Below are positions 1,701 through 17,620 of a stretch of DNA of 22,463 nucleotides, piece after piece. The notes beneath the pieces were generated by a model, which did no database searches, had not been told where the DNA came from, and was given only the letters and a program-made list of their open reading frames with translations. Numbering within the stretch: position 1 is the stretch's first letter; every line of letters begins with the position of its first letter. Position numbers and translations under genes: made by a program. The stretch covers positions 1 to 22,463 of the forward strand of contig JAZDJU010000012.1 of NCBI GenBank assembly GCA_043803685.1, given 5' to 3'. The stretch is from Candidatus Omnitrophota bacterium. Lineage in GTDB: Bacteria > Omnitrophota > Omnitrophia > Omnitrophales > Aquincolibacteriaceae.

Positions 1701-4700
1701 ATTATCAGCGCACTGCGGTCGAATTGGGGGCCAAGGCTTTCTTTTTTGTCCAAGACGCTGCTGCGCGGTCATTCAATTACCTGATGGATAAATATGGGGT
1801 GGGCTTCGCTCTTGGGGCTGCGGTCGGAGCGGCGATCATTGTTGCGGGTGCGCTGGTCCTCGCCGGAATTAAATGTATTCTCGTAGGGGGCGTTGTCGCT
1901 TTAGGTGTAAAAATGTCTACCGTAGGCGGTCTTCTGATCGCGAGCGGCGCGTTTCTGGGTTCTTCCGTCGCTATTGGTTGTTACTATGCCGACGTTTATG
2001 CCGCCCAGATTAAGGCCGGTGAAACCTGGTGGAATGCGTGTCGCATAGCAGGTCAGGGGACGTGGCTTCGGGCCATTCAAGATATCGCGTTCAGTTGGGT
2101 GGCTGTCTCTGTGATCAATATGATCTTTGCCATGGGGGTGGCTTCGTTCGCGGCAGGAGCGGCCAATCAAGTGGCAAGTTGGGGTTGGGTCCTTAGGACG
2201 GGCTCGTGGCTGACCGAAAGATTTGGAGCCGGGACCGGAGGTATTCTTTTGAGCCGTGCGGAGGTCACGCTTACGGGACGGGCTGCACAATTATGGGGGA
2301 GCCAAGCGTCGTCTGTCGCCTATTCGGGGCTCCGGTTAACGTCGGTGACGTTATCCGGATGGAATGCGTTTGCGATCCATTTCGCTTCAGGCTTTACGCT
2401 CCGAACTATCATTCCGACGATCCTGAATATCGGCGTCAAAATGGGCTTTACGCTGAGCATTGGGGCGAACGTTTTGGCGCTTCTCGGTATAACTTACGGC
2501 ACTCCCGAGGCTCTTTCGCGTGAGCGTCTTGACGGAGGCTGGAACTCCGGGCGGGGCAACTTTCTTGGGGTTTGGGACAACATCACGCGCGGTTTTGTTC
2601 TCATGGTGGCGAGTATGCAATCCATGACCGGCCTCGAATCCATGATGCAAAACATGGTCACGACCGAGCACTGGATATTCACTGTAGGCTTTGCGGTTTT
2701 TGGGTTTATTCCTACCTATTCGTCAAGTATCCTCAGCGGCATGGCAGGCATGGCAGGCACTTGGGCGGGCAAATGGATCGGTCTCCCCGCCGGATCGGCC
2801 GCGACGGGAGGTATTTTTGAGATGGTCGGCTTGGTTGGGGAAGGGGCAATCATCAGTTTGGCGACCTTTCAATTGATGAGTCTGATCGGGCGGAGCTTCG
2901 TGCAGGCATGGGAAAAATCGGGGCTTGCCGCGCTCTATGAGGAGGCTTTCAAGGAAAATGTTCTTCAAAGTAGCCTTCTCGCCTGGGTTCCGGACCAATA
3001 TTCTGAATCCATGGTCGAACTATTTGATGTCGCGCGAGGAAGAAAGACTCATTTCAGCGCCGAACAGAATCAGTTTAGTCAACAGTTGAGCCAGGCGGTC
3101 ACCGCGTCAGGACTGCTCACGGCAGGTTTCTCTTCCGTTGGCGGAATGTTGACAAAGGCTTTGGGGCAGTTTAATGCCGGCAATATCGCTGCAGCTCAAA
3201 AGATTGTCTCATCTGCGATCCAATCATTGAACGGGCAAGCGACAGGCGTAGCCCAATTCGATGTCGCCCTAAGCTCATTACAATCTATGGCTGAAAATTC
3301 CATGGCAGTGATCGGTCGTTTGGATGTTGCCCTTTCAAACCCGGAAAGTGCCTTAGCGAAGCTCTACGACGTACCGACTTTGAATACCATGTTGGGTCTT
3401 GCTAAGAATAATCCGTTCATGGATTTTGGAAATAGGGTGGATGTCCAGGGCGGTAACCTTCGGGGGCTTGCGGCGGCCGCGGCGATCCAGCTTGTGGCGA
3501 CGGGCGGGTTTGATGCTACCTATAACGGCAAGTCTGCCGGGGAATTCCTTGGGAGCTTTGGCTTGAATAAAGAGCAGGTAAGTCATATTCGGACGATCAA
3601 CGTTGATTTTGCTGCCAAAACGATCAGTTCTGAGGATCTGTCGAATTTTACCCGCGATCTTGCGATGTCCTCAGGAGTTCTTGTCAGGGATGTTCGCGGT
3701 GTCCCGCAAATATCGACGCAGCTCTTCATAAATGTTGTGATGGCGAATTTTATGGGAACACTCAGCGCAGAAGCTTTTAGGTCTTCGGGTGTCGAGAAGA
3801 ACGCGCTCGCGGCTTTTGAGGCTATGACGCCGGAGGCGCGGACGAAGTTCCAGAATGCGCTTCGAGGGCGAAGTGAAATGGCCGACGGCGAAGCGCTCAT
3901 GTTCCTTATGCTCGGAAGCCAACTTGCAACAACTCCCAAAGACACCGCGAAGGTCAAAGCGCTTTTACAGGCTTTTGGACTTACGAGCAGTTCGGCAAGA
4001 GGGATCGCTGGAAGCCTCGGGATCATGTCGAGCTCCGCCCGATCGATCCTCCGGATGGTCGAGGATGGTGAGGAAGGCGCGAACACGCGTGTGGGAGAGT
4101 TCCTGATCGAGAAGGCTGGAGCTTTCCAGATGAAAGATCTCTGGAAATTTGAAGGGGTGCTCTCGGCGTTCGGCCGTGTGGATGCTCAGGACTACGGAAA
4201 GTTCTTCAGTGATCTTGGTTTGCAGGGCGCGATCCCGAGCGTGATTCTTGATATGCTGACTAAAGACTCTGTTTTTGCCGACACCCTCATCTCGGGTATC
4301 CTGGATTCTTTGATGGTCAGCGGGAAACGGCCGACCGAGGCTGGACTGCGGGATGCCGTGTTTTTCTCCGCGTTGCAGTATGCAAAGGATGCTCCCGAGG
4401 CGGCTAGCATCGTCAAGGCCATGCTCGGTGAAAAAGGAGAGAAACTGGGGAAGGGGCTTGAGCGCCTCACGGGGGTTGAGGGTAGAGCAAATTATGAGCT
4501 CAAGGCGGTTCAGGCGATCGCCGCTTCGATCGCTAAAGAATCAGTCGCTTTTGCTTTGCCGCTTCTTGAAGCCGCGGTTCAGGGGGTCGCCGCTTTATCC
4601 TTCAATGTCGAAGCCTTAGTCGCTTCCGGTCTTGTGACCCAGGATGAGATCGATGCTTTCTTGTCTGAACTTAACCGGCCCCAACCCGTGACCCGTTCTG

Positions 4701-7700
4701 AAGTGAGAGACGCTGAGGCGGAGCAAACTCCCGAGGAATTGACAGAGGCAGAATCGGATCGATCGGCGCAGAAAAATTTTGATTCCGTGAGAGAACGATT
4801 GTCGGGTGCTGTTCAAGCCCTGGTGATGATCGGCGGGCGTTATGCGGCTACCCATGGAGATCTCACTTCCGAAGGACTCAGGGCCAACCGGGCGACGGGA
4901 CCTCCAGCTTCAGTCACGGCGGTAGAAAATTCTCTGAGTCTGCTATTGGGTGATATTTTAAGTAAGGCCGAAGGCGAAAATGGAGTTGCCGCGGATCGTA
5001 TTCTTGTCGCAAACCTCGCATGGCTTAATCAATCCTTCTCCAGTCAGATCGCTGCTTTAAATCTTCAGCTTGATAAGGCTAAAGGCCTGCATGCCGCGGA
5101 CCGGATCCTCTACGGGCTTTCCATTTCTCAGTCTTCATTGCGGATCGTTTCAACGCTGTATGCTCAAAAAACAGGCGCACGTCAGAAGACCGATTCCTCT
5201 CAGGATGGCGATACCACGAGCGTTGCCGAGCTTGAAAAAGAATCCGATGAGATCCTGCGGGTCCTCGGGAGTTCCCGCAGTACGGGTTCCCGGCTCAACC
5301 GGGATATGCGCCTCCACGAGCGCGCTTTCCGGGCTAACCAGAATGAAACTCGTGTTCCAGCAGGCCGCTTGAATCAGTTGGTTGCCTCCGTCCAATCCGC
5401 TTTCATCAATTCGCTTCTCGGTAAGTTTATTTTTGAAAAAACGCAATGGGGCGTCGCGCAAGTCCTCCGGGCGGTTGCTGAGGAGGGACGTGAACGCTCC
5501 CAGGAAATGTTGATCACGGCCCTTCAGAAGCATTCCAAGTGGGGGGAGGTTTCTAAGGAACTTCGCGATAGGGTTTCCGCCTGGCAGGAAGACCAAAAAA
5601 CAGGCGCCAAGGCTATCGATCCCGAACTTTTGTTGGCCATCTATAAAGATGTGGCAGGGAAAGCTATATTTACCGAATTAAAATTGGTACCGAAGCTCAA
5701 GGCGAAGTTCTTTGACCTGATGTTGCTTTTTGAGGGTACTGTTCAATCGATCCAGGATCGCGCTACCGAGATCGGAGCCCAATTGGAATTAGCGAAGCGT
5801 CTTGACGGTGTGACCGGCGAGAAAGCTCGTGCAGAAGCCATCCAAGAAGTTTGTAGGGCTTGGCAGGCCGAATTCCAGAAGCGCATCGATAAAGAAGGTC
5901 TTACGAAGCCTCTTCGTAATGAGGCTTTGGCTTTCTACAGTGCGGCGATCGCTGCCACTAAAGGCGATAAAGGCTGGGCAGATTCTCAGGGGAATTTCCG
6001 GTTGCATGACGAGCAGATCATGGCCGCTTTGGTCATGAATTATGGCTGGAATATCGCGGAGCTTGCCACCGGTGAAGGAAAGACCACGATTGGCTTTTTG
6101 TCAGCCGTCGTGAATGGCCTGACAGGAAACGGCTCTTTTATTGTCACGACGCAGGACATGGCGGCGGCGGATGGTTATATCAGCAATACCACCGTGGCGA
6201 ATATGCTGGGTATTTCAGTCGGTCTTGTTCAGAAGAACGACTATGAGCGCGATGCGAACAAAAATGCCGAGGTCTTTAAGGACGAGAAGGGCAAGTCATT
6301 TATCCGGAAGAAGGGCGCTGATATGACCTCGGAACAAAAACGCTCCGAGTATCACAAACAAATTACCTATGTGAGCACCCAAAACTGGGCCTTTGACACC
6401 CAGAACGACATTCTTGAGACCAAGGAGAACGACCCCGGGAAAAAGATCATTGACCGCGATTTCAAGAAGGTCTCCGTGATCATTGACGAGATCGATAGCG
6501 TTCTGATCGATCAGGCGATGACCTCCTTTATCCGTTCGTCAGGACAGGGGGAGGCCAAAGAGGAGGACAAGGATTTGCGTTTGGCGTTTGCCCGGATCGT
6601 GGGGAATGTTGACGTTGCAAACGAAGGAGATGAATTCAAGCTCGCCGTAGGTCAATTTTTGATCGTGGACGGCGAGGCGGTACGGCCGCTTGTGCCTAAT
6701 TTCCAAGCGGATGCCATAAAAGATCCCACAGGCCGCATGGCTCAGGCGAACGAATCCGGCATCGCGAAAGCTGTAAAGCGTCTTGCGGCGATGCTGAGTG
6801 AAGGAAATATCTCGCCGGAACTTTTCGACCGTCTTGTCACCCCCGAAACGAAGAAGGGGAAGATGGGGCTGACCCTGACGAAAGAAGGGAAAGATCTCTT
6901 GAGCGACGCGGTCCAGGCCCAGCATCTTTATGCCGAGGGCCGTCAGTACCGCCGCGAGAACAATGAGATCCTTCTGGTCGCAAAAGACACGGGTGTCACG
7001 CAGGAAGGCCAGCGCCTGAATCGTCTCCATCAGGCGATCGAAGCTAAGGAATATTTGCTGGATCAGGAAAGGATTAAAAATAACTTGGAAGTCGAAAATC
7101 CGGTGACGATCCATGAGATGGTGGTCCGCGGGGAGAGCCGGACGACTTCAAGCGTGACGGCGCGTGACGTGTTGCGGCAATATGGCCGTGTTTCAGGAAT
7201 GACCGGGACGGCTTCATACGGCCAGGCGGAAAAATTGTTTGACAAGATGTATGGCTTAAAAGTCCAGACAGTCCCGACCCACAGCATTAGCCGCCGCGTG
7301 GATCATCCTATGCAGTTCATGAACTCCCGGGAGCGTTTTGAGAGGGTCGCGGAGCTTGTGATCGAGGCTATTGCGGCGGGAAGACCTGTCCTTATCAACG
7401 CTCAGACCATGGAGGAAAGCCGCGCGATCGAAGCAGAGCTCGACATCATCTTAAAACGAGAGGGGATCGTAGCTAAGGACGGGATACGAGTCTTGAATGC
7501 GGCTAATGAGCTGGAGTACGACTGGATGAAAGATAGTGCCGGAAAGCCAGGCGTTATTACTATTGCCACGAACATCGCGGGGCGTGGTACGGACATTGGG
7601 CTGGGTCGAAAAATGACCATAGCTCACTTTGACGAGATGTTGAAGCGAGGAGCAATAGATCAGGCAGCTTATGCGCGTTATGTCGAGGCTAAAGATGGAA

Positions 7701-10700
7701 AACCTACGCTTACCCCAGAGGGTAAGGATTATGATAAAAACAGAATTGACTCCGTAGGCGGGCTGCGTCAGATCAATTATGGAGTGAATGATTCGCTGAG
7801 AATTGATATGCAAGCCAGCGGCCGCGCGGGTCGTATGGGAGCGGCAGGGGAATCGTTCACTCTTGTCGCGACCGACGAGGCTAGCTCCGATTACACCTTT
7901 ATTCAGCGCGGATTGATGTCCGGCAATCGTGTCCAGCAGGCCATTGCCAAGGTTGCGATGGCGCGTCTTAACGATCCCTTCACGGAAGGCGGTCGCTTTT
8001 TTGCCAAGTGGTTCTTGAGCAGTGGATTGAAGGGTGTGGATCTTTCCGAAGTAAAAACGATCGGGGAATGGGCCTATCGCATTGCCCAGCGCAATGTCGA
8101 GATCCAGAACGCCAAGTCCTTGTTCGAAGCGGCGCGGCGCGGGGATCGTTTGTTCACAGGGCAATTGCTTGTGAAGCCCATCTTTGATTACCTCCAGGAA
8201 AAGATCCGGACCGAAGTCCGGTCTCAATATAAAGGGGGAGTGCCCGAAGCCATCTCCACCCGCGTGAATGAGGTTTTCAATAGTTTCAAGGAGCCCTATA
8301 CCGTTGAAGAGCTGAAAGAAGACCTTGATGCCGGTTTTGTTTCAAAAGAAGATTTCTCAAAGTACGCGCTTGAGGTGGAGGATCTGTCGGGGGTAAAGAC
8401 GTTCGTGTTCACAGATGCGGGCGTAGCTTTCGCGGCTACTCAAAAAGACTCTTTAGAACGATTAGGTAATCTTCTGGATAGGAAATTTGGAATCCGGTTG
8501 AATTTTGAGGAGCTGGGCAAGGTCAACATGCAGGCGCTGGAAACGGCGGTGGCTCAGGAACTTATGTATCATTATGCTTCGTCGGCCATGGAAGAGCGGC
8601 TAAGCGAGATCCGTGGAGACTTCTTCAAGGAGATCCAGAAGGAAGGTCCGAAAGCCACGAGCCGTTTTGCGTGGCTCGCCGAGCAACGATATACCAAGAT
8701 GTTCACCAAAGCGTTGATGAGCATGGCCGAGCGCGGGCCGGGCGTGATCCGTAACATGGATCTCAGCGGCGAGAAACTCAATGATTATGTGAATAATGCC
8801 ATCACCTCACGTGAAGACACGAAAGAGAAGGAAGTTGAGAAAGCTGCGCGGGTTAAAGACGCTGAAAAGAGTGAAGAGAAAAATGAAGGATTTCTTGGGG
8901 CCTATCTGACACGGTTAGCCGATGTCGTGGAAGCCGCAAAGAAAGCAGAGGAGCGTGGCGAGTTTCAGTTGGAAGCTGAAGCGAAGGCGAAAGTTGCGTT
9001 GAAGGAGAAAGTTGCGTTGTGGAGGGCTGCCTTGGGGATCGGCGTCACCCTGCAACGGACATTCCGGGATTCGGCCGCAGTGGAACAGTCGCTTACGCGT
9101 CAGGCGGAGCAGCAGCAGATCACGATTGATGCGGCGGTCCTTGCGAGGGCAGCGGCTGCTGCGAAGGATGGTTCAGCTCAAGCCCAAGCGCATGTGCAAG
9201 CGTTGAATGAGCAAATGAACGCGCGACGCGAAGCTGTGATCGCGCGTTTGCGGAAAGGGGAGATCCAGGCCGCGATCATCCAGACCGATAAAGGTTTTGA
9301 AGTCTTTGTCATGCCTGTCAGCGGTGACCCCAAACCAGTAGTGCTTCAGAAGGTTACTCCTGAATATTACAGTGCGATCAAGGCTCTTGAGCGATCCGAC
9401 GGAAAAACAACTTACACGCACAATGGCAAGGAACTGCCCGTCAAGGTGTCCTCAGCCGGTGTGATCGAGATCGGGGAGGTGCATTATCCCGCGGATGCCA
9501 CGATCGGCAAAGGCACGATCCTGATCAATTCAGAACTGGAAGGAACTAAACCCACTATTGGGGTCGGGGCTTACATCGAAGGAAGCGTGCTCAATAATGC
9601 GACGATCGGTGATCACGCGGTCATTAAGGTGACGCGTGCGAATCAATCGATCGATGCCGGCGCCTATGCAAAGCTTGACCATGTGTATGGGGATAAGATT
9701 ACCGTCGGAGATAATGGGACGGTGGTCTATTCAGCCCGTGAAACGATCAAGGTCCCAAGTGGCGCAGCCCGGGTCGGTGATTTTAAAGAAATGGGCATCT
9801 TTGGCTTCAAGGCCAGTGATGCCGAACGGACCGTCATCTCTAGTGACACTTACGTGGCAGACCAGAGAGGGTTGTCGGTTTTCGTTCAGGATGTGGTGGG
9901 TAAGGTGCTTGGGAAGTGGCGTTTTGAGCGCCTCAAGAAATTCTTCGAGCGTCTTTCTGAGGAACTCGCGAAAAGGACCGATACGCAACTCCTCCGTGCG
10001 GATGTCAAGGCGCGTCGTGTCGGCGGTGCCCCCGATGAGCCGGAGGTCGCGGGGCAGGCAAAGCAGCAGTTGAGCGTGGAGGAGGTTCTCGCTCATGCGG
10101 AAGCGATGAAGATCATGGCTTCTAACGCGAATGAAGCCAGGGATATTTTAGGTAAACTCTCGCCGCGCCAGAAGCTTATTGTGATCGCCATCATAGCCTT
10201 CCAAGGAAGGCGTGATGCAAACGGCCAACCGCTTTTGACCGAGGAAAATCTGAAATATTTCGAGGGATCGGAAATTCTTACGGAAAGGGTTAAGGACATG
10301 CCGGGAGTGTGGGGTAAGCTTAAAGACCACAATTTGCCAAATGTTCCTTTCATCTATATCAAGCTTTCCGGCTCGGCCTTGAAGTTATTGCAAGCAAAGA
10401 ACATTCAAAGCGAAACAGCCATTGGCTTTAGGACTTCGCCTTATGACATTGCGATTCTTGGCCAATTTCTCTCGGGGAGTGCAGCGCCGATACTGAAGGA
10501 AGTGTGGAATGATTTACTGCCGTTTATTGCGGCTGGCTCCATTACCGTGAATGGCCCTATGGCGAAGGAAAACAAGGAGAAGGGCTTTGAAATGGTCGCC
10601 CACGAATATGGTCATCATATTGATGCGGGTAAAAACATGACTGAATCGTCCAGTAGGGAAAAACTGGCTGCGCAAGGCTTCCAGGTCGATCACCCAGCTC

Positions 10701-12562
10701 TGACGAAGCTGCTCGCGGATCTTGATGCCATTAAAGCGCCGTATGTCTCTCGCTCCACGGAGGATGTCAACCTTATTGAGGAACCCGCGCAATATCGTTT
10801 GCAGAATCTGGGTCAAAACGGAGAATTCCCTGGCTTTGGGAAAGATCGCGGGACTGTTTTGACCTATGCTTATCAAGACGATGGAAAAACGCCGCATGCG
10901 AAAACTCCGGAACATCTTGAAAAATTAAATGCTGTGATGACGGTGATCGAACGTCTCGACCGCATTTTCCCGGGGCGCGTTGTAACCCATATGATCCGAC
11001 GTGCGCGGAGCGTGGGAGAGATCCTGGGCTGGACCAAGGGAGCGGACGGTTCTACTTTAACGGATGAAGAATTGTTCGATCGTCATTTGCCGCACTTCAC
11101 AAAAGAAGAGATCTCGCGCGCCAAAGCGGCCGGATATGACACTCGGCAGATCGCGCTCATGGAAATGGATGAAGAAGCCCGGGAGCATGGATATATTCGC
11201 CATGATCTTGCTGATCCGACGCCCGAAAATATCCAAAAGTGGGCGAACAATTGGGCCGTTCAGAAAGTGACCTATCTCTGGAACGAAGGCGGCGAGAAGG
11301 AGCAGCAGCTCATCCGCCAGTGGCTGAGCAGTAGCGATGCCGTTCTTCGGACGGCAACGGAAGAAGCGATGAAGGCCTTAAGTATCACGGAAAGCATGTT
11401 GCCTGCGAAGACTGCGCAAACGGAAGCTGTTACAACAGTGGCTCCTGTCGACTCGAAGGCTTCTTTCACAAGCTTGGGGTTTGGGCCGCAGTGGGCGGAG
11501 TGGTTCTCTGATAGTGCGGTCCAATTCAGCAAGGCGGCCGATAGCACCTCAAGGGAATCGGCCGTCCATACGGCCATTAGCGATCTGGCTGGGAAATTGT
11601 TTAATCTTGATACGGCAGGTCTGAATATCAATTTCAGTTCGTCGAATACGGATCCGAATCTTAGAGGGAAAGTGGGTTATTTCTCGAACGGGACCATCAC
11701 CATAAATCGCAGCAGGCTGAGCGAGATCGAAAGCGCCGAGATGACGAATCAGGCTGAGCTTGAAAAATATTGCAATATGGTCATGGATATGACGGCGGTC
11801 CTGGTGCATGAAGCCGAGCATGCTAAGGAGCCCGCGAACATGGAAGGCGTTCGGTCTGAAGTGCGGGCTTATGCGGAGACCGCGGAAGCGATGAGAGCAT
11901 TGGATGGGCTTAATCATGGCTCACGCTATGCGCGGCAGATCGAGTTGATCGATCTGTTGTTGAGCGTGCTTGCGGATGGGCGACGCCTTGATACGAAGGT
12001 TCCAGCTGATGTGTTGCAGCTTGTGGAGCAGATCGTGTCAGGCAGCGCCGACCCCAGGCTTGGTTTGGAATCACTGCTGAATCGTTTGAATGCCCAGATC
12101 TATGCCCTTGGGAATTCAGGGTTGAATGCACAACGCAATGTAAAGATCCTTAAAGATGCAGCGGAGGTGAAGTCGCTGATCGATTCTAAGTTGAAGAAGG
12201 ATGCCGCCAACCTCATTGAGCACCATGTTTTCGTGACTTCTGAGGCAGATGCGAACGTTGCGGAAATGCGTTCCGAGATCGCTCGTTTACAATCGTTGGG
12301 TTTCATGGTCTTCAAGTTCGACGATGCCGTGATCCGCGGTATATTCGGTAATAAAGCGGATCCTTATGATGCCATCTATCGTCTTACGGAACTTGCCGCC
12401 GCGCTGGGACAGACTCAATTCGTGAAATTAATGGCGCAATATGAGGTCCGTCCCCAGGTCGACGGCAAGTTCTATTCGATAGCCGCTTGTTTTAGCAGCC
12501 CCGTCATTAAAGGCTTGATCACGGAGCTCGTCAGCCACCAGCAAGTCGCCTCCGCGGCATAA
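2..12562 (+). CDS. Giant multidomain membrane-associated protein, 5'-partial (repeats, TM block, SecA-like ATPase, hexapeptide beta-helix, two zincin motifs)
   Basis: Uninterrupted frame. The TTG at 11 is not a real start: the frame reads NGVLTFN from base 2 and matches an internal repeat (NGVLTFT at 389). Stop TAA at 12560-12562. Domain motifs are listed separately. Confidence 0.95.
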   Translation, partial: NGVLTFNAAYINGVVYAWGADKGENGLTDPNSKAYWHSSAETGKNSIANSSMSDSNMKNLDVVKSGTAADAQKIGYDFSGTAFASMNTTDQNALGQFLATYGIGGMRLAGTYVYDVNGTQIGFGNAEMVNGVLTFTHAYINGVVYAYANFNTDVAGASERWIQIGNGDVKSVEAYSASVDLPGGGTALGVYMNVFTGAAAMLSVADQAALGAFMGMYGINGVKQAGVGFVFDAAGTQIGMIEIKGWSNGVPVIGEAAYINGVVYGWSSKKGVFQIADSSQWHNTTGKEGEAVVLDQDTRKKVANYAMDIIGFRHDDGTSFNAAETLAVGNFMAAMGLNGLIQAGKTALYLDGKFVGTGVVQWANGSAWIKVASINGVIYAWSAELYKGRGTGESSFHQKVNPSDVTMIFGEKGAINIVDSNNKQIADYAKEVTGFNIGDGFKWSTSETTTIGNFMAGLGLNGLVQTGMAALYLGGETGKLVGVGMMTTSYFSSLQIDVANVGGVVYGWSSEAKTFQIANPSLWTSVKTAEGFVAKDGTTFTSSETLTVGNFMAGLGLGGLTQAAGTYYQRTAVELGAKAFFFVQDAAARSFNYLMDKYGVGFALGAAVGAAIIVAGALVLAGIKCILVGGVVALGVKMSTVGGLLIASGAFLGSSVAIGCYYADVYAAQIKAGETWWNACRIAGQGTWLRAIQDIAFSWVAVSVINMIFAMGVASFAAGAANQVASWGWVLRTGSWLTERFGAGTGGILLSRAEVTLTGRAAQLWGSQASSVAYSGLRLTSVTLSGWNAFAIHFASGFTLRTIIPTILNIGVKMGFTLSIGANVLALLGITYGTPEALSRERLDGGWNSGRGNFLGVWDNITRGFVLMVASMQSMTGLESMMQNMVTTEHWIFTVGFAVFGFIPTYSSSILSGMAGMAGTWAGKWIGLPAGSAATGGIFEMVGLVGEGAIISLATFQLMSLIGRSFVQAWEKSGLAALYEEAFKENVLQSSLLAWVPDQYSESMVELFDVARGRKTHFSAEQNQFSQQLSQAVTASGLLTAGFSSVGGMLTKALGQFNAGNIAAAQKIVSSAIQSLNGQATGVAQFDVALSSLQSMAENSMAVIGRLDVALSNPESALAKLYDVPTLNTMLGLAKNNPFMDFGNRVDVQGGNLRGLAAAAAIQLVATGGFDATYNGKSAGEFLGSFGLNKEQVSHIRTINVDFAAKTISSEDLSNFTRDLAMSSGVLVRDVRGVPQISTQLFINVVMANFMGTLSAEAFRSSGVEKNALAAFEAMTPEARTKFQNALRGRSEMADGEALMFLMLGSQLATTPKDTAKVKALLQAFGLTSSSARGIAGSLGIMSSSARSILRMVEDGEEGANTRVGEFLIEKAGAFQMKDLWKFEGVLSAFGRVDAQDYGKFFSDLGLQGAIPSVILDMLTKDSVFADTLISGILDSLMVSGKRPTEAGLRDAVFFSALQYAKDAPEAASIVKAMLGEKGEKLGKGLERLTGVEGRANYELKAVQAIAASIAKESVAFALPLLEAAVQGVAALSFNVEALVASGLVTQDEIDAFLSELNRPQPVTRSEVRDAEAEQTPEELTEAESDRSAQKNFDSVRERLSGAVQALVMIGGRYAATHGDLTSEGLRANRATGPPASVTAVENSLSLLLGDILSKAEGENGVAADRILVANLAWLNQSFSSQIAALNLQLDKAKGLHAADRILYGLSISQSSLRIVSTLYAQKTGARQKTDSSQDGDTTSVAELEKESDEILRVLGSSRSTGSRLNRDMRLHERAFRANQNETRVPAGRLNQLVASVQSAFINSLLGKFIFEKTQWGVAQVLRAVAEEGRERSQEMLITALQKHSKWGEVSKELRDRVSAWQEDQKTGAKAIDPELLLAIYKDVAGKAIFTELKLVPKLKAKFFDLMLLFEGTVQSIQDRATEIGAQLELAKRLDGVTGEKARAEAIQEVCRAWQAEFQKRIDKEGLTKPLRNEALAFYSAAIAATKGDKGWADSQGNFRLHDEQIMAALVMNYGWNIAELATGEGKTTIGFLSAVVNGLTGNGSFIVTTQDMAAADGYISNTTVANMLGISVGLVQKNDYERDANKNAEVFKDEKGKSFIRKKGADMTSEQKRSEYHKQITYVSTQNWAFDTQNDILETKENDPGKKIIDRDFKKVSVIIDEIDSVLIDQAMTSFIRSSGQGEAKEEDKDLRLAFARIVGNVDVANEGDEFKLAVGQFLIVDGEAVRPLVPNFQADAIKDPTGRMAQANESGIAKAVKRLAAMLSEGNISPELFDRLVTPETKKGKMGLTLTKEGKDLLSDAVQAQHLYAEGRQYRRENNEILLVAKDTGVTQEGQRLNRLHQAIEAKEYLLDQERIKNNLEVENPVTIHEMVVRGESRTTSSVTARDVLRQYGRVSGMTGTASYGQAEKLFDKMYGLKVQTVPTHSISRRVDHPMQFMNSRERFERVAELVIEAIAAGRPVLINAQTMEESRAIEAELDIILKREGIVAKDGIRVLNAANELEYDWMKDSAGKPGVITIATNIAGRGTDIGLGRKMTIAHFDEMLKRGAIDQAAYARYVEAKDGKPTLTPEGKDYDKNRIDSVGGLRQINYGVNDSLRIDMQASGRAGRMGAAGESFTLVATDEASSDYTFIQRGLMSGNRVQQAIAKVAMARLNDPFTEGGRFFAKWFLSSGLKGVDLSEVKTIGEWAYRIAQRNVEIQNAKSLFEAARRGDRLFTGQLLVKPIFDYLQEKIRTEVRSQYKGGVPEAISTRVNEVFNSFKEPYTVEELKEDLDAGFVSKEDFSKYALEVEDLSGVKTFVFTDAGVAFAATQKDSLERLGNLLDRKFGIRLNFEELGKVNMQALETAVAQELMYHYASSAMEERLSEIRGDFFKEIQKEGPKATSRFAWLAEQRYTKMFTKALMSMAERGPGVIRNMDLSGEKLNDYVNNAITSREDTKEKEVEKAARVKDAEKSEEKNEGFLGAYLTRLADVVEAAKKAEERGEFQLEAEAKAKVALKEKVALWRAALGIGVTLQRTFRDSAAVEQSLTRQAEQQQITIDAAVLARAAAAAKDGSAQAQAHVQALNEQMNARREAVIARLRKGEIQAAIIQTDKGFEVFVMPVSGDPKPVVLQKVTPEYYSAIKALERSDGKTTYTHNGKELPVKVSSAGVIEIGEVHYPADATIGKGTILINSELEGTKPTIGVGAYIEGSVLNNATIGDHAVIKVTRANQSIDAGAYAKLDHVYGDKITVGDNGTVVYSARETIKVPSGAARVGDFKEMGIFGFKASDAERTVISSDTYVADQRGLSVFVQDVVGKVLGKWRFERLKKFFERLSEELAKRTDTQLLRADVKARRVGGAPDEPEVAGQAKQQLSVEEVLAHAEAMKIMASNANEARDILGKLSPRQKLIVIAIIAFQGRRDANGQPLLTEENLKYFEGSEILTERVKDMPGVWGKLKDHNLPNVPFIYIKLSGSALKLLQAKNIQSETAIGFRTSPYDIAILGQFLSGSAAPILKEVWNDLLPFIAAGSITVNGPMAKENKEKGFEMVAHEYGHHIDAGKNMTESSSREKLAAQGFQVDHPALTKLLADLDAIKAPYVSRSTEDVNLIEEPAQYRLQNLGQNGEFPGFGKDRGTVLTYAYQDDGKTPHAKTPEHLEKLNAVMTVIERLDRIFPGRVVTHMIRRARSVGEILGWTKGADGSTLTDEELFDRHLPHFTKEEISRAKAAGYDTRQIALMEMDEEAREHGYIRHDLADPTPENIQKWANNWAVQKVTYLWNEGGEKEQQLIRQWLSSSDAVLRTATEEAMKALSITESMLPAKTAQTEAVTTVAPVDSKASFTSLGFGPQWAEWFSDSAVQFSKAADSTSRESAVHTAISDLAGKLFNLDTAGLNINFSSSNTDPNLRGKVGYFSNGTITINRSRLSEIESAEMTNQAELEKYCNMVMDMTAVLVHEAEHAKEPANMEGVRSEVRAYAETAEAMRALDGLNHGSRYARQIELIDLLLSVLADGRRLDTKVPADVLQLVEQIVSGSADPRLGLESLLNRLNAQIYALGNSGLNAQRNVKILKDAAEVKSLIDSKLKKDAANLIEHHVFVTSEADANVAEMRSEIARLQSLGFMVFKFDDAVIRGIFGNKADPYDAIYRLTELAAALGQTQFVKLMAQYEVRPQVDGKFYSIAACFSSPVIKGLITELVSHQQVASAA
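1790..2920 (+). other. Gly/Ala-rich multi-pass hydrophobic (transmembrane) region of the giant protein
   Basis: Long apolar runs such as GVGFALGAAVGAAIIVAGALVLAG, VAVSVINMIFAMGVASFAAG, WIFTVGFAVFGFIP and GAIISLATFQLMSLIG. Boundaries approximate. Confidence 0.8.
5930..8200 (+). other. SecA-like DEAD motor domain (NBD1, preprotein-crosslinking region, NBD2) embedded in the giant protein
   Basis: SecA signature motifs in canonical order: RLHDEQI, IAELATGEGKT (Walker A, ATGEGKT at 6065-6085), VIIDEIDSVLID (Walker B, DEID at 6485), LHQAIEAKE, GMTGTA, VPTH, GRPVLI, VLNA, ITIATNIAGRGTDI, GGL, RIDMQASGRAGRMG (~7800-7840). Boundaries approximate. Confidence 0.95.
9490..9860 (+). other. Hexapeptide-repeat left-handed beta-helix (GlmU/LpxA-type repeats)
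   Basis: ATIGKGTILINS, PTIGVGAYIEGS, ATIGDHAVIK, ITVGDNGTV, ARVGDF, TVISSDTYV fit the [LIV]-G-x4 periodicity. Confidence 0.75.
10601..10800 (+). other. Zincin metallopeptidase motif 1 (HEYGH)
   Basis: MVAHEYGHHID with HEYGH at 10601-10615. Candidate third ligand in LIEEPAQY further downstream. Confidence 0.6.
11660..11900 (+). other. Zincin metallopeptidase motif 2 (HEAEH...E)
   Basis: GKVGYFSNGTITINR strands, then AVLVHEAEH (HEAEH at 11807-11821), then SEVRAY with the downstream Glu typical of gluzincin/ImmA-like peptidases. Confidence 0.75.
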
Positions 12563-12609
12563 TTCCACATCTTTTCTCCCGTGTAACTCTTTGCTTATAT
12601 CCTTTCAGG
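12539..12609 (+). repeat. Junction repeat copy 1 (native 3' end of giant gene QQVASAA* plus 50-nt trailer)
   Basis: cagcaagtcgcctccgcggcataattccacatc..., homologous to 13755-13828 and 15659-15688. Confidence 0.9.
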
Positions 12610-12616
12610 CTCTTTA

Positions 12617-12644
12617 TTGACAAGTTATCAATATATGATAACAT
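12617..12644 (+). promoter_or_regulatory. Sigma70-type promoter with embedded palindromic operator
   Basis: TTGACA (12617-12622), 16 bp, TG-n-TAACAT (12639-12644). Perfect inverted repeat GTTATCA-atata-TGATAAC (12624-12642) between the boxes. RBS AGAGGGG before ATG 12662. Confidence 0.8.
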
Positions 12645-12661
12645 TCTTTTAGAGGGGCTTT

Positions 12662-13534
12662 ATGGGGTTTCGTATCAAACAATACGCTAAAGAGCAGGGA
12701 ATGAAATTGGGAGATGTGGCCCAAAAACTTCGGATGCCGCTTTCCAATCTGTCTGCCGTTGCGTCCGGACGACGGAGCGTTTCACTCAGACTTCTCAACA
12801 AGATCGCCAGCGTCTTGAATTGTTCTGTGCCAGAGCTGTTTGAGGTTGAAAAGGCTAAAGATGCCTTTAAAGATACTGAGCTTAACGACAGGGTTTCACA
12901 GATCGAACTCGAGAATTTTACGGGATGCGACAAAGGATGGATCCATCGCCTTACATTTGACCAACAAAAGCATTTTAAGATGGTCCGCGAGGGTGGCGTG
13001 CCGTATGGCGCCAAAGCGGCAGGGGATAAGGACCCTTGGGAGACCTTATTCGAATGTTTCAACCGAAAAGGCGTTGATTATGTTGTGATCGGGATGTCTG
13101 CGATCAATTATTACGCTCGATCAGCCATGGAGACGTTTGGAACGCAAGATTACGATCTTTTCCTGAGGCCTGCCATAGCAAACGCGGTTAAAGCGTTTGA
13201 GATTTTATGCGATTTGGGGTATGAAATGGTCGCTCACGGTAAGGTGGTTTCAAAAAACGATTTAAAGGGGATTCTCAAGAAAAAACGGACGGTTCTTGCG
13301 GTTAATCCAGAGGGCGTTACTTTCGAGCTCCTTTTTTCGGTTTCAGGATTCGTTTTTGAGCAGATGGCCAGTGATCCTTCGATCTTCAGGTCAGGCGGAA
13401 CGGTTATTCGCGTTGCGAAATTGAACAAGCTCTTGGCGTCCAAGGCGGCTGCCGATCGCCCCAAGGACAGGCTTTTTCTTAAGCGGTATAAAATGATCTT
13501 GGAGAATATTGCGCGGAAGAAATTTAAGGATTAA
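12662..13534 (+). CDS. XRE-family HTH fused to a Pol-beta-superfamily nucleotidyltransferase (TA-like)
   Basis: N-terminal GMKLGDVAQKLRMPLSNLSAVASGRRSVSLRLLNKIASVLNCSVPELF is an XRE HTH. C-terminal GVDYVVIGMSA...TQDYDLF...LLASKAAADRPKDRL is an NTase with DxD motif. Confidence 0.85.
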   Translation: MGFRIKQYAKEQGMKLGDVAQKLRMPLSNLSAVASGRRSVSLRLLNKIASVLNCSVPELFEVEKAKDAFKDTELNDRVSQIELENFTGCDKGWIHRLTFDQQKHFKMVREGGVPYGAKAAGDKDPWETLFECFNRKGVDYVVIGMSAINYYARSAMETFGTQDYDLFLRPAIANAVKAFEILCDLGYEMVAHGKVVSKNDLKGILKKKRTVLAVNPEGVTFELLFSVSGFVFEQMASDPSIFRSGGTVIRVAKLNKLLASKAAADRPKDRLFLKRYKMILENIARKKFKD

Positions 13535-13535
13535 A

Positions 13536-13778
13536 ATTTTCTCAGGAACGGCCGTGGATCGGACGTTTGCGGAAAGTGTCAGAGAGATCTTTGCAGTTAC
13601 TCGTCTCGCTTCATGGCTGGGCGTTAGCCAGTTCGAGGCCTTGATGCAGGAACATTATGATGTCCGTGGTCGCACCGGTCAGGGCTATCTGTCCGTGAAT
13701 GCGTACCTTAGTAACGAGTTCATCAAATCGCTCCTTAGCGAGATCCTTGCCATCCAGCAAGTCGCCTCCGCCGCGTAA
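13536..13778 (+). pseudogene. Orphan paralogous C-terminal fragment of a giant-type protein (junction repeat copy 2)
   Basis: VTRLASWLGVSQFEALMQEHYDVR...FIKSLLSEILAIQQVASAA aligns with the giant C-terminus LTELAAALGQTQFVKLMAQYEVR...VIKGLITELVSHQQVASAA (26/60 identical by hand). An in-frame GTG at 13554 with AGGA upstream could allow a 74-aa product. Confidence 0.85.
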
Positions 13779-13857
13779 TAATTCCACCTCTCTTCTTCCA
13801 CTCAGCTTTCTGCTTATGTCCGTTGAAGTCTATTTCAGCCAAGAGCTTCTTGTTTTT

Positions 13858-13890
13858 TGGGTGACAATCGTGTACATTATGGGTGACGAT
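13858..13890 (+). promoter_or_regulatory. Putative operator of first Phd-PIN operon
   Basis: Direct repeat TGGGTGACAAT (13858-13868) / TGGGTGACGAT (13880-13890) flanking TGTACA (13871-13876). RBS AAGGAGGT at 13903-13910. Confidence 0.55.
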
Positions 13891-13915
13891 AGACCTACTC
13901 AAAAGGAGGTTGGTT

Positions 13916-14203
13916 ATGCGTTTTATTTCAGTAAGGGATCTGAGGGGGAGGCCGGGGCAGATATGGAAGCAATTAGCCCGTCTCAGGGAGATGGTGCTGA
14001 CGCTGAATGGAAAGCCGATCGCTATTATTTCCAGCACTTCCGAAGAATTTCTTGAGGAGAATCTTGCAGAAGTTCGAAAAGCACGGGCCATGGTTGCGGT
14101 GAGGGCGATCCAGGCGGAATCGGTCCGCAAAGGTCTTGATAAAATGACTCTGGAAGAGATCAATGCGGAGATCCTGGCTGTCCGCAGAGCGCATCGCCGA
14201 TGA
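13916..14203 (+). CDS. Phd/YefM-family antitoxin
   Basis: MRFISVRDLR...EMVLTLNGKPIAII Phd motif. Start reassigned to ATG 13916 by the strong RBS. ATGA overlap with the next gene. Confidence 0.9.
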   Translation: MRFISVRDLRGRPGQIWKQLARLREMVLTLNGKPIAIISSTSEEFLEENLAEVRKARAMVAVRAIQAESVRKGLDKMTLEEINAEILAVRRAHRR

Positions 14204-14691
14204 AGGTTGTTGCGGATACCAACGTTCTGATCTCAGGGCTCCTGACGCCACATGGTCCACCTGCGGAAATCGTCCGCATGGTTCTGAACGGAAATCTTCG
14301 GGTTTGTTATGACCTCAGAATACTGGATGAGTATCGAGAGGTTTTTGCGCGTCCGAAATTCGATATTTCTCATGGGTTGAGCGCCAATCTTTTGGAGCAG
14401 ATCCGTGCGAGCGGTGAATCGGCAAATACTCAGCCATTGTCGCAGCCGCTTTTGGATCCGAGTGACGAGGCGTTTCTTGAAACGGCCATTTCCGGGGGCG
14501 CAGATTGTCTTATTACTGGAAATCTGAAACATTTCCCACCGTCCTGTCGGCAGGGAATGCGGGTCTTATCTCCTCGCGAGTTCCTGGAATTTTACAGAGA
14601 CTGGCAAGCGAACGGTTCCGGCAAGATCCAAAGCCCGTCGGTGGAATACAGGCTGAGGAAAGGCGGAAAAAGAAGGCGATCGCGACACTGA
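14200..14691 (+). CDS. PIN-domain (VapC-like) toxin with basic C-terminal tail
   Basis: MKVVADTNVLISGLL, ILDEYREV, DPSDEAFLETA, ADCLITGNLKHF. Coupled to upstream antitoxin. Confidence 0.92.
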   Translation: MKVVADTNVLISGLLTPHGPPAEIVRMVLNGNLRVCYDLRILDEYREVFARPKFDISHGLSANLLEQIRASGESANTQPLSQPLLDPSDEAFLETAISGGADCLITGNLKHFPPSCRQGMRVLSPREFLEFYRDWQANGSGKIQSPSVEYRLRKGGKRRRSRH

Positions 14692-14764
14692 ACCCGCCCA
14701 GTGGAGGGAGAGTCCGCCTAAGAATCATGGCTTTGTTTTCTTATAGAAAAGGCAGGAGGAGCCC

Positions 14765-15037
14765 ATGCAAATGAATGAAATTAGCGCTTTGAGTCTCAGG
14801 AAGCGATTTGGAGAAATGATGGACCGCGTCCGGCGCGAGAAAGAGCCTTTGATAGTTACCAAGAACGGGCGACCGATGATTGTGATGATGGATATTGAGC
14901 TCTACAGAGCTTCGCAGGAAAACATTCAGGATGAGGCGTTCCTTGAGGCTTATACAGAGGAACGAGTGAAAGAGTTTCTTGCCGAAGATGGTCTCGATAA
15001 GGCGACCGTTGCGGCCCTGCGAAAAGATCCTGCCTGA
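14765..15037 (+). CDS. Phd/YefM-family antitoxin
   Basis: ISALSLRKRFGEMMDRVRREKEPLIVTKNGRPMIVMM. RBS AGGAGG at 14754-14759. Confidence 0.9.
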   Translation: MQMNEISALSLRKRFGEMMDRVRREKEPLIVTKNGRPMIVMMDIELYRASQENIQDEAFLEAYTEERVKEFLAEDGLDKATVAALRKDPA

Positions 15038-15123
15038 TCATGCCCAATTCTCCATCAAAAGATTCCACGGTTAATTGGGCTAGCCCTTGCAACCTTCCGT
15101 CAAAAGAAAATAGATGCTAGGGC

Positions 15124-15561
15124 ATGCGCATCTTCCTTAACGCAAACGTCTTTTTTGCGGGATGTATGTCAAAAGAGGGAGCTTCGGCTTTCGTTCTTGA
15201 ACTTGGCAGGCGAAAGCGAATGGAATTGGTCGCGAGTAAATTAGTACTTCGAGAGGCGGACCGGAACTTGCGCCGGAAGGCGCCGCCAGTCGCTCTCAAG
15301 GCTTTTCACCAGTATCTTCAGCAAGTCAAGATTCGCATCGCTTTAACTCCCAATGGAGAAATGATGAAGCCGTACGAAGGAATGATTGACCCCAAAGATC
15401 TTCCCGTGCTTGTCGCCGCGATTGCGTCCGAAGCTGATTTTTTTCTCACGCTAGATCGCAAACATTTTTTGTCAGCCGGATTAGTTGCGAAGATCAAAAA
15501 ACCGCGCATCCTGGGTCCCGCGGATTTTCTTCGGAATTTTTATCTTAAAGGAAAGATATGA
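15124..15561 (+). CDS. PIN-domain toxin, first catalytic Asp replaced by Asn
   Basis: MRIFLNANVFF (canonical LDANV), VLREADRNL, DPKDLPVLVAA, ADFFLTLDRKHF. Confidence 0.88.
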   Translation: MRIFLNANVFFAGCMSKEGASAFVLELGRRKRMELVASKLVLREADRNLRRKAPPVALKAFHQYLQQVKIRIALTPNGEMMKPYEGMIDPKDLPVLVAAIASEADFFLTLDRKHFLSAGLVAKIKKPRILGPADFLRNFYLKGKI

Positions 15562-15571
15562 AGAAAGGTTG

Positions 15572-15688
15572 GCGTTCAGCAATGCGTTCCTGAACGAGAT
15601 CCTGACCATCCAGCACTTGATTTTCATTTGTAAGAAATGATCGAAAATCAGTGCAATCCAAGTCGCCTCCGCCGCCTAATTTCGCCTC
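15572..15688 (+). repeat. Junction repeat copy 3 (eroded giant-gene 3' end split by a palindromic insertion)
   Basis: Reads AFSNAFLNEILTIQ, then a hairpin insert with an in-frame stop, then IQVASAA* (caagtcgcctccgccgcctaa at 15659-15679). Trailer taatttcgcctc matches copy 2 at 10/12. Confidence 0.85.
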
Positions 15689-15730
15689 CGTAAAGTCTCG
15701 ATTTTTCCACGTTCTAAAAAAAAGTTTATC

Positions 15731-15782
15731 TTGCGAGACAGCGCCTTACAAGTTAAAATCAGACCAGAATTCAGACTAGTCT
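15731..15782 (+). promoter_or_regulatory. Sigma70-type promoter and operator of Phd-RelE operon
   Basis: TTGCGA (15731-15736), 17 bp, TAAAAT (15754-15759). TCAGAC repeats at 15759 and 15771 (12-bp period). Palindrome AGACTAGTCT at 15773-15782. Confidence 0.7.
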
Positions 15783-15812
15783 TAATTTTAATCTACAAGA
15801 AAGGGTGTTCCC

Positions 15813-16091
15813 ATGACGAAAACTCTGCCTCTCTCCGAAGTGAAGGTCAAGCTAAGCGCGATCGTGGCAGGCATTGTGCGCCGGTCCGATGAGGTGATCA
15901 TTACGCGGAATGGCAAGCCGGCTGCGGTCTTGATCAGCGCAGATGAATACGATAGCTGGAAAGAGACCCAGGAGATCAAGCGTGACCCTGATCTTATGCG
16001 ACAGATACGCGAGAGTGAGGAGGCGTATCGAAAAGGTGATTTTAAAGAGTACGCATCCCAAGATCTAGACGAGCTTTTTGGAGGCAGATAA
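15813..16091 (+). CDS. Phd/YefM-family antitoxin
   Basis: KTLPLSEVKVKLSAIV...EVIITRNGKPAAVLISADEYDSWKETQEI, a classic YefM-like sequence. Confidence 0.93.
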   Translation: MTKTLPLSEVKVKLSAIVAGIVRRSDEVIITRNGKPAAVLISADEYDSWKETQEIKRDPDLMRQIRESEEAYRKGDFKEYASQDLDELFGGR

Positions 16092-16439
16092 GTGAAGCTA
16101 ATTTGGCGTGTCTCCGGTTCTCTGAAAGAGCAAGTGAGACATCTTCCGCCTGATTTAAAGTGTCAGGTGCGATTGGCGTTCGACGATATTCAAAAAAGAC
16201 CTGAGGCGGGGAAGCTGCTTTCCGACGAGTTAGTGGGATATCGGAGCTACCGTATCGGAAGATACAGGATTATTTATCGCATTATGGAGGATCGCCTTGT
16301 CCTGGAAGCTGTTGGATCCCGGGCGGATATCTATGAAAGGATTGTGCTTGAGATCGGCCGCGCCAAGATCCGGGAGCGCGCTGCCAGGTATGGCGCCAAA
16401 CCACGAAAACCGGGGCCGCGAGTCGCCGTAGCTGCGTAA
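16092..16439 (+). CDS. RelE/ParE-family toxin with C-terminal extension ending RVAVAA
   Basis: PEAGKLLSDELVGYRSYRIGRYRIIYRI...VGSRADIYE. GTG start abuts the antitoxin stop. Confidence 0.9.
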   Translation: MKLIWRVSGSLKEQVRHLPPDLKCQVRLAFDDIQKRPEAGKLLSDELVGYRSYRIGRYRIIYRIMEDRLVLEAVGSRADIYERIVLEIGRAKIRERAARYGAKPRKPGPRVAVAA

Positions 16440-16468
16440 TGGCGCATAACCCTACGATCTGTTGTCGC

Positions 16469-16543: not shown

Positions 16544-16798
16544 GTGACAACATTGAGCGCGACGAAGCTTCGAGGTAGTTTGTTTCATGTTCTGAAAAAG
16601 GCGAGTAAGGCTCACGTTCCATTCCTGGTCACCTCGCGCGGAGGGGATGTGGTGATCATTTCTAAGGTCGACTACGAAAACCTTTTGGAGAGCCTCGAGC
16701 TTCTCTCGACGCCTGGGGTTCTCAAAGGAGTGCGTGAGGCGAGGGCTGACGTTAAGGCCGGCCGAACCAAGTCCATGGACGAGGTCTTTGGTTCATGA
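16544..16798 (+). CDS. yefM: YefM/Phd-family antitoxin
   Basis: TLSATKLRGSLFHVL...VVIISKVDYENLLESLELLSTPG. ATGA overlap with the toxin. Confidence 0.85.
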   Translation: MTTLSATKLRGSLFHVLKKASKAHVPFLVTSRGGDVVIISKVDYENLLESLELLSTPGVLKGVREARADVKAGRTKSMDEVFGS

Positions 16799-17058
16799 GT
16801 TCTCCGCTGTATGAAGTGCGGATCACCCGTCGGGCAGAGAAAGATATTCAGACGTTGACGCCAAAGCTACGTGAAAAGCTTAAGGATATCCTGATCGAGG
16901 TGATATCGAAAAATCCATTCGAAGGAAAAAAACTCCTCGGAGATCTTGAAGGAAGTTATTCCTATCGATTGAGTTATCAAGACCGGATCGTTTACAGCAT
17001 TGATAAGCTGAATCGGATCGTTTATCTGGAGCGCGCACGGACCCATTACGGGAACTGA
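16795..17058 (+). CDS. yoeB: Txe/YoeB-like (RelE superfamily) mRNA interferase toxin
   Basis: NPFEGKKLLGDLEGSYSYRLSYQDRIVYSI, with the C-terminal THY motif typical of YoeB. Confidence 0.8.
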   Translation: MSSPLYEVRITRRAEKDIQTLTPKLREKLKDILIEVISKNPFEGKKLLGDLEGSYSYRLSYQDRIVYSIDKLNRIVYLERARTHYGN

Positions 17059-17059
17059 T

Positions 17060-17620
17060 ATGAATTATCCAACAGTCTTTGATCTTCTTGATAATGCTGT
17101 CCAAGAATTGGGCGTCCGCTTAATTCTGATCGGCGGCTTTGCGGTCAATGCCTTTGGTGTTGGGCGGAATACCCAGGATGTCGATTTTTTGATATTGGAA
17201 ACGGATTATCTTAAGCTTAAGGACTTTCTTTTAGCTCAAGGCTATGAAGAAGTGGTTCGCACCGATGTCTTTGCGAAACAGACGGCCAAGGATCGCTATG
17301 CGATGCCCGTCGATTTTTTATTTACCGATCCTCACACATTCGAGATGATCTTCCGGGATAGCGTGGGCACGACGATCTCTGGGCATGCGTTCAAAACGCC
17401 ATCGCTCTTGCATCTGGTCGCTTTAAAACTCCACGCGATTAAAAAGGGTTCGAAGGATCGTGTCTGGAAGGATCTTCCGGATATCATTAATATGGTCATT
17501 GCGAACCGGATTGATACCGACTCTTCCGATTTTATGGAGATTTGCCGCAAGTTTGGTCCGGAGGGGATTCATCAGAGAATTCAAGAGGCAAGCCGCAGAG
17601 GTCCTGATGGAAGATCTTAA
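17060..17620 (+). CDS. Pol-beta-superfamily nucleotidyltransferase (TA-associated type)
   Basis: LILIGGFAVNAFGVGRNTQDVDFLI (GG-x-A and DxD), VDFLF, LVALKLHA, KDLPDI. Same family as the C-terminal domain of 12662-13534. Confidence 0.88.
   Translation: MNYPTVFDLLDNAVQELGVRLILIGGFAVNAFGVGRNTQDVDFLILETDYLKLKDFLLAQGYEEVVRTDVFAKQTAKDRYAMPVDFLFTDPHTFEMIFRDSVGTTISGHAFKTPSLLHLVALKLHAIKKGSKDRVWKDLPDIINMVIANRIDTDSSDFMEICRKFGPEGIHQRIQEASRRGPDGRS

Follow-up and report, generated by a model that had tools for sequence, protein, structure and literature searches.

A stretch of 69 codons that lies 1.2 kb downstream of a giant gene, and that we call the orphan tail, is, with a probability that we put at roughly 0.6, a 5'-truncated relic of a 3' end that the giant gene once used and that was stranded when recombination inserted a new 3' end upstream of it. 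We favor this reading because the homology between the orphan and the giant's end is solid, the orphan sits at the position of a giant gene's stop, further relics form a series at the locus, the similarity between the two tails is mosaic and the arrangement recurs in relatives. The direction of the event, i.e., which of the two tails was the resident one, is what we infer from the locus, as is the view that the relic is now probably inactive. The window, that is, the whole stretch of DNA analyzed here, is an entire contig of 22463 nt. Its features, all on the forward strand, are as follows.

2..12562, +, giant gene, 4186 codons, 5'-truncated by the contig end, ending in ...QQVASAA
11570..12559, +, conserved C-terminal module of about 330 residues with an HExxH...E part, a Rossmann-like alpha/beta part and a VAxAA end (alignment and model)
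12356..12559, +, active tail, the giant gene's last 68 codons as aligned to the orphan (BLASTP)
12563..12616, +, post-stop trailer copy 1, 54 nt, pyrimidine-rich, 70% identical to copy 2
12662..13534, +, accessory gene between active tail and orphan, XRE-type HTH fused to a DUF2204-like nucleotidyltransferase (domain match)
13544..13556, +, AGGA and GTG, possible weak ribosome site and start of a 74-residue product (sequence)
13569..13778, +, orphan tail, 69 codons and stop (BLASTP and profile); frame open from 13497
13782..13835, +, post-stop trailer copy 2, 70% identical to copy 1 (54 nt)
13855..14691, +, Phd/PIN_3 operon 1 with repeated GGGTGAC operator-like motif, collinear with the DNA after the giant stops in G003:C35 and G009 giant1
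14765..15561, +, Phd/PIN_3 operon 2 (domain match)
15574..15681, +, tail remnant 2, in two pieces (nucleotide self-comparison)
15813..16439, +, Phd/ParE operon, collinear with the DNA after a tail in G003:C179
16419..16439, +, apparent tail micro-remnant 3, the ParE end RVAVAA and stop, unlike the orthologues
16544..17620, +, Phd/ParE-YoeB-like pair followed by an AbiEii/DUF2204-like nucleotidyltransferase, the latter directly after the giant stop in three relatives

The orphan tail and the giant gene's C-terminal module

The frame of the orphan is open from 13497 to 13775, ends with a TAA at 13776-13778 that is directly followed by a second TAA, and closes with the same QQVASAA as the giant protein. 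BLASTP of the orphan against the giant's last 200 residues aligned 13569-13775 with 12356-12559 (28/69 identical, 44/69 positive, one gap, E 3e-13). An earlier, sequence-only reading of this DNA had proposed the homology from a hand count of 26/60 identical residues and had noted the lack of internal stops, and both observations stand. After removal of QQVASAA, the Smith-Waterman score was 84 as compared to 21.8 +/- 4.1 for shuffled sequences (maximum 48; 0/5000 reached 84). A tail profile from which both window sequences had been excluded gave 83.6 bits for the whole orphan, 68.9 bits for the orphan cut before QQVASAA and 79.8 bits for the giant's tail. BLASTP of the orphan without QQVASAA against the giant's tail returned no alignment, which we consider a seeding miss because the profile gives 68.9 bits on the same cut sequence. 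The shuffle test and the profile scores therefore show that the homology is real and that, on a point to which the sequence-only reading had tied its case, it is not confined to the last seven residues. Chance similarity is ruled out by the E value and by the profile scores with and without QQVASAA.

Over the 68 aligned codons, the active tail and the orphan share 52% of their nucleotides and 43% of their third positions, with a pS of 0.64 and a pN of 0.42, so that a recent local duplication can be dismissed as far as the coding part is concerned, and the earlier statement that the copies are too diverged for it is borne out there. Identity rises to 83% in the last 8 codons and is 70% between the 54-nt trailers that follow both stops, the latter with a score that was not matched in 2000 shuffles (0/2000). 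Since the last 80 nt at the 3' side are more alike than the rest, they have a more recent common history with at least one crossover or conversion, and we place the breakpoint near codon -8 because the identities of the last 8 codons and the trailer exceed that of the third positions upstream. The two ends of the insert have 76 nt in common that are 78% alike and include a 17-nt identical core, CAGCAAGTCGCCTCCGC, most of which is also present in remnant 2; this stretch could be an old att core or just the conserved last codons. The post-stop spacers of relatives have no similarity to either trailer copy and therefore cannot polarize the event. An assembly artefact is ruled out by the low identity of the copies (52%) and by the presence of like structures in five further assemblies.

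The giant fragment carries SecA_DEAD and P-loop_SecA domains at residues 1948-2623, and in a hydropathy scan its transmembrane-like hydrophobic segments were confined to residues 610-713, upstream of the ATPase. Passages of West-Roberts et al. (2023; bioRxiv 10.1101/2023.11.21.568195) describe Omnitrophota giant genes in which transmembrane segments precede divergent SecA DEAD and preprotein-binding domains. The window giant resembles the SecA_DEAD giants of these passages in that transmembrane segments are followed by a divergent SecA_DEAD, and its relatives reach up to 39033 codons. The same passages mention neither the C-terminal module nor relic tails, those on conservation being concerned with flanking loci, SecA and TSP3 repeats only, and the terms toxin-antitoxin and pseudogene do not occur in the paper's main text. 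A second paper on Omnitrophota giant genes likewise has no occurrence of C-terminus or HExxH in its main text, and passages of it are silent on the module and on relic tails.

Compared with other giants of the genus, the window giant matches only over the last 260-340 residues, whereas the bodies are unmatched. The C-terminal module is thus the only part common to otherwise unrelated giants of one family in an uncultured phylum. In an alignment of 23 giant ends, the H, E, H and E of an HExxH...E motif, one more H, a G and the last A were invariant. Strict conservation of the module's C-terminal Ala-Ala may recall C-terminal recognition tags. AlphaFold2 modeled the last 330 residues with a mean pLDDT of 79.5, reaching 88-96 across most of residues 181-290. 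VIA-align, with Z scores of 5.3-6.6 only, which are inside its stated noise range, delimited residues 173-330 as one Rossmann-like alpha/beta unit and matched residues 3-158 to HExxH-type folds. Foldseek of the module model against the PDB gave no match at E 0.001 or better, a PDB sequence profile search with the module gave nothing below E 0.06, Pfam and NCBIfam matched no family on the tail or the module, and a protein atlas search with the module returned unnamed clusters only. Judged by its HExxH...E motif, the module would be an uncatalogued, metallopeptidase-like one, and it is this module, rather than the orphan, that represents the better target for work on the handling of giant proteins.

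The orphan corresponds to residues 262-330 of the module model, with three to four helices and one short strand; the four other strands of its parent domain, at model residues 176-250, are missing from it. In the model, the tail is therefore not a domain by itself but the last third of an alpha/beta domain of about 155 residues within the module of about 330 residues. The sequence-only reading had postulated a conserved C-terminal domain of about 60 residues, of which the position at extreme C-termini holds (see below) but the status as a domain does not. It had further taken the tail for a candidate secretion or targeting signal. Because the sole hydrophobic segments precede the SecA-like ATPase, the tail is probably on the cytoplasmic side, which speaks against a secretion signal, and no known sorting-signal family was matched.

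To chart the family, we searched 1.84 billion representative proteins with a profile built from 18 tails. The family is rare, with only 49 clusters reaching E 0.001 or better, 45 of which match up to the very last residue; 18 of them are at least 1000 residues long, 11 have 200-999 and 20 fewer than 200 residues. The tail occurs in 16 of the 41 nearest genomes, the window's own included, and among 20 tail loci checked in these genomes, 16 stop right after the match, two stop within two codons and two are weak non-tails. Where contig ends do not cut them, tail-bearing open frames measure between 1462 and 39033 codons. Of 401 genomes sampled evenly across the phylum, 31 carry the tail, including 28/65 in the window's family and 2/5 in one sister family; no tail was found in the other families of this sample. 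More than half of the genomic tail matches in the sample (28/44) lie inside open frames of at least 1000 codons, and for the relic count 10 of the 16 short frames were judged to be contig-end cuts and left out.

The closest relative of the orphan is the end of P0008, a contig-cut fragment of 719 residues whose tail is 70.6% identical to the orphan and which shares the whole C-terminal module with the window giant at 32% identity. P0008 is thus the kind of long protein ending in the orphan's variant that should exist if, as the sequence-only reading suggested, the orphan is the tail of another giant-gene allele or paralogue. That suggestion is supported by P0008, by the location of the orphan at a giant-stop site and by the relics in five other genomes, both described below. 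The active tail type is common in the genus (G003, G005, and G009), whereas no tail of the orphan's type turned up in those genomes of the genus that were searched. Metagenome contigs searched with a single protein yielded 595 pattern hits and no confirmed relative. One metagenomic protein of 113 residues, P0021, has an orphan-type tail that fits the family profile to position 64, beyond which the sequence is unrelated; an insertion may have interrupted this tail.

The locus downstream of the giant gene and its relics

A 99-nt intergenic region, including the 54-nt trailer, separates the stop of the active tail from the HTH-nucleotidyltransferase gene. Upstream of this gene (12617-12650), a promoter-like TTGACA, 16 nt, TAACAT is accompanied by a palindromic sequence. 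The encoded protein is an unusual fusion whose nucleotidyltransferase half shares 25% identity with the nucleotidyltransferase encoded at 17060-17620. Homologues of the gene were found in one of the 65 other genomes of the family and in 0/19 of the genus; in the one family genome (G045), no tail adjoins the homologue.

Downstream of the orphan's stop follow a 62-nt spacer, two GGGTGAC repeats, a ribosome site and the Phd/PIN_3 operon. In G003:C35 and G009 giant1, intact giant stops are followed by this operator together with the ribosome site and the start of Phd, with 70-73% identity over 474-791 nt. This collinearity shows that the orphan occupies the place of a giant gene's end, and compared with these relatives the window has an extra block that consists of the present tail, the 54-nt trailer and the HTH-nucleotidyltransferase gene. 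The two direct GGGTGAC(A/G)AT repeats (13855-13890) precede the operon also in G003 and G009 (L020, L019) and are probably the antitoxin's operator.

Further downstream, an AbiEii/DUF2204-like nucleotidyltransferase gene (17060-17620 in the window) is located directly after giant stops in G010:C19, G009 giant2 and G002:C78 (L021 7298-7816, L032 1147-1707). In G009, nucleotidyltransferase genes are present on both sides of giant2, and in the window the gene comes directly after ParE/YoeB; recombination between nucleotidyltransferase paralogues could delete or insert a whole giant gene. We detected no integrase or recombinase in the block 12563-13568, which contains the HTH-nucleotidyltransferase gene only, or among the 18 ORFs scanned from 12662 to 22221. 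Scans of the window for tRNAs and Rfam families found none, promoter and terminator counts were no higher than in shuffles, and base composition showed no foreign-looking block. In two DNA runs with small shares (0.05-0.06), contig pieces matched parts of 11933-13216, 15039-15117 and 16299-16376, and none of them reached the orphan. At the contig end, 22283-22461 resembles, at 69-73% identity, sequences close to the 3' side of giant genes in G004, G005, G019 and G010:C2, and has no clear ORF, tRNA or Rfam match.

The orphan is accompanied by two smaller pieces of tail. Remnant 2 lies just behind the second PIN gene and before the Phd/ParE operon; its first piece (15574-15615) is 81% identical in nucleotides over 42 nt to orphan positions 13718-13759, its second (15656-15681) encodes IQVASAA and a stop, and some 40 nt of unrelated sequence with a stop in it lie in between. 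The product of the ParE gene (16092-16439) terminates in ...PGPRVAVAA, unlike the G009 and G003 orthologues, which have other ends after ...KPRK or its equivalent. ParE thus appears, from this comparison of gene ends, to have taken up the final 6-7 codons of a tail relic in its own frame. Genome-wide, only the giant, the orphan and ParE end in VA.AA, i.e., 3/20511 six-frame open frames of at least 60 codons. The three relics have the same orientation and stand behind three cassette blocks; the farther they are from the giant gene, the shorter and more damaged they are.

Eight more internal relics were found in five other genomes (two in G009, one in G010, three in G072, one in G002, and one in G017), where they are interleaved with PIN, ParE, DUF4143-ATPase and nucleotidyltransferase genes. 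The two relics of G009 are located among PIN_2, DUF4143 ATPase and Phd/ParE genes in an island between two tandem giants, and the three of G072 among PIN_3, two DUF4143 ATPases and Phd. G010 carries an 82-nt copy, 87% identical to its own tail, that has a 1-nt deletion and lies 52 nt past the stop, and G002 and G017 have one short remnant each. Nucleotide identity to the active tail of the same genome is 79-92% for the relics of G072, G010 and G002, and 76-81% over the 40 codons compared for those of G009. The contig with the three G072 relics (L035, G072:C11, 6671 nt) has no giant gene; two of its relics match the active tail, which is located on another contig, at 92% identity, each is behind a different DUF4143 ATPase, and one has no stop codon and reads on for 24 codons. 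Overall, nine of the 11 relics lie within about 80 nt behind the preceding gene, which in a compact genome is weak evidence.

The relics differ in the selection that they have experienced. The G072 orphans have dN/dS values of 0.57, 1.16 and 0.83 (small counts), as would be expected for unconstrained copies. G009 orphan B has a dN/dS of 0.05 against an active tail at a dS above 1 and was therefore a working tail for most of its history; the window orphan resembles this case. The window orphan appears to have been under selection until lately, because its profile score equals those of active tails, its pN is below its pS, and G009 provides a parallel. Conversely, relics decay once stranded, as indicated by the G072 values, the 1-nt deletion in G010 and the interrupted remnant 2.

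Origin of the orphan tail

According to the reading that we favor, recombination would place a new 3' end, comprising the present tail, the 54-nt trailer and the accessory HTH-nucleotidyltransferase gene, upstream of the old one. The locus would have seen three or more such events, the orphan being the product of the newest, and each would leave a relic that is pushed downstream between toxin-antitoxin and nucleotidyltransferase cassettes and becomes shorter and more decayed. The joining might proceed via a circular intermediate, or by one-sided homologous plus illegitimate joining. Two further observations argue for this origin, namely that the block between the tails carries a gene absent from the other 19 genus genomes, and that the orphan comprises only the last part of its parent domain and none of the other four strands. 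It accommodates less easily that the trailer is more alike than the synonymous sites, which is explained only by assuming a further crossover or gene conversion. A strain-level "empty site" was not seen.

We regard it as unlikely that the orphan is instead the remnant of a second, tandem giant gene that was deleted except for its last 69 codons. There is no piece of a giant gene's 5' part upstream of the orphan, with only 35 nt between the HTH-nucleotidyltransferase stop and the start of homology; the gene between the two tails is a lineage-specific accessory gene; and a series of three relics would take three deletions that all end immediately after a cassette. Tandem giants do exist in G009, where genes of 9521 and 18673 codons surround a very similar island with Phd/PIN, DUF4143, Phd/ParE and nucleotidyltransferase genes and two relics. 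The position of the window's nucleotidyltransferase gene, which follows ParE directly whereas the G009 paralogues flank giant2, would fit the loss of a giant, and the strong divergence between orphan and active tail is what a paralogue would show. However, in both G003:C35 and G009 the same Phd/PIN operon is behind the first giant and not the second.

The present tail type is common in the genus and the orphan's type was not found there, and the orphan could therefore have come with a cassette. In such a scenario, which we consider improbable, a tail fragment and the HTH-nucleotidyltransferase gene would have been carried on a circle that entered by one crossover within the conserved final codons of the resident tail. 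Circles of this kind are invoked by the rhs model in passages of PMC2935791. The 17-nt core that is identical in both copies and mostly kept in remnant 2 would suit this crossover, as would the genus-typical active tail next to an orphan type and an accessory gene that are foreign to the genus genomes searched, the orphan type of remnant 2 and the location of relics at the 3' side of cassettes. Yet no circle junction was seen, and the relics of G072, G010, G002 and G009 resemble the active tail of their own genome rather than a common "arm" lineage. Moreover, their truncation points vary from profile position 7 to 60, and the DUF4143 cassettes adjoining relics are only 24-25% identical to each other.

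The frame of the orphan could also, with low probability, encode a working 74-residue protein that starts at GTG 13554 and, for example, competes for a binder of the giant's C-terminus. As the sequence-only reading had pointed out, this GTG (13554-13556) has an AGGA upstream (13544-13547); the two are 6 nt apart, and the GGAGG that precedes the Phd gene at 13916 is a stronger site than this AGGA. This start, the weak ribosome site and the prediction of the orphan as a gene by the gene caller count against a stranded relic, and the intact frame, with a profile fit equal to that of active tails, would also be compatible with ongoing selection. AlphaFold2 gave a moderately confident, helical model of the orphan alone (mean pLDDT 77.7), which leaves independent folding undecided, and 20 of the 49 family clusters are short. 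The gene caller's product is, however, on record as a singleton cluster with no free-standing orthologue, the short family members have varying 5' limits and are in several cases decayed or contig-cut, four of the five domain strands are missing, and the G072 orphans evolve at dN/dS values of 0.57-1.16.

Taken alone, the orphan is a recombination by-product, and its value is that of a marker. From it we see that recombination turns over the 3' ends of giant genes and that toxin-antitoxin and nucleotidyltransferase cassettes accumulate in the DNA immediately downstream. A bolder extension, to which we give little credence, is that the conserved last codons of the giants serve as an integrase-free landing pad. 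Toxin-antitoxin or defense cassettes with a tail-derived arm would loop out as circles by recombination between tail and relic and re-insert at the end of any giant gene with the frame kept. If this were true, the relic tails would additionally form a store from which the C-termini of giants are swapped.

Comparison with known stranded gene ends

Passages of Jackson et al. (2009; PMC2935791) describe "dissociated tips" of rhs genes that arise by C-terminal displacement, and propose that the sequential insertion of new ends shunts old ends downstream. As in these passages, a long gene is followed in the window by a string of 5'-truncated copies of its 3' end in the same orientation, each with its own downstream genes, and at least one relic stems from a different allele. 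In contrast to the rhs loci described there, the parent is a giant membrane protein with a SecA domain and not an Rhs/YD-repeat protein, the displaced piece is a conserved protein end instead of a polymorphic toxin tip, and the neighbors are generic type II toxin-antitoxin and nucleotidyltransferase genes instead of cognate immunity genes.

Similarly, orphan cdiA-CT/cdiI modules downstream of CDI loci are reported by Poole et al. (2011; PMC3150448). These resemble the situation in the window in that start-less 3' fragments lie downstream of a very large full gene. The CDI orphans differ in that they carry distinct toxin domains together with matching immunity genes, whereas neither a toxin tip nor a pairing with immunity genes was seen here.

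A third parallel is icd/e14/icdC in E. coli K-12, where the gene has received a new 3' end from an integrated element, with the old one left stranded. In both cases, the frame of the target is kept by an incoming substitute 3' end and the old end is left beyond the insert. Unlike e14, the insert in the window measures 1.2 kb and has no integrase, and in place of identical att cores its ends have 76 nt that are 78% alike and could represent an old core.

Stranded gene ends are thus already known from rhs, cdiA and icd/e14, and the orphan is most likely not a new kind of gene. New are the gene family concerned, the displacement of a conserved end rather than a variable toxin tip, the link to a pile-up of toxin-antitoxin genes and an uncatalogued C-terminal module.
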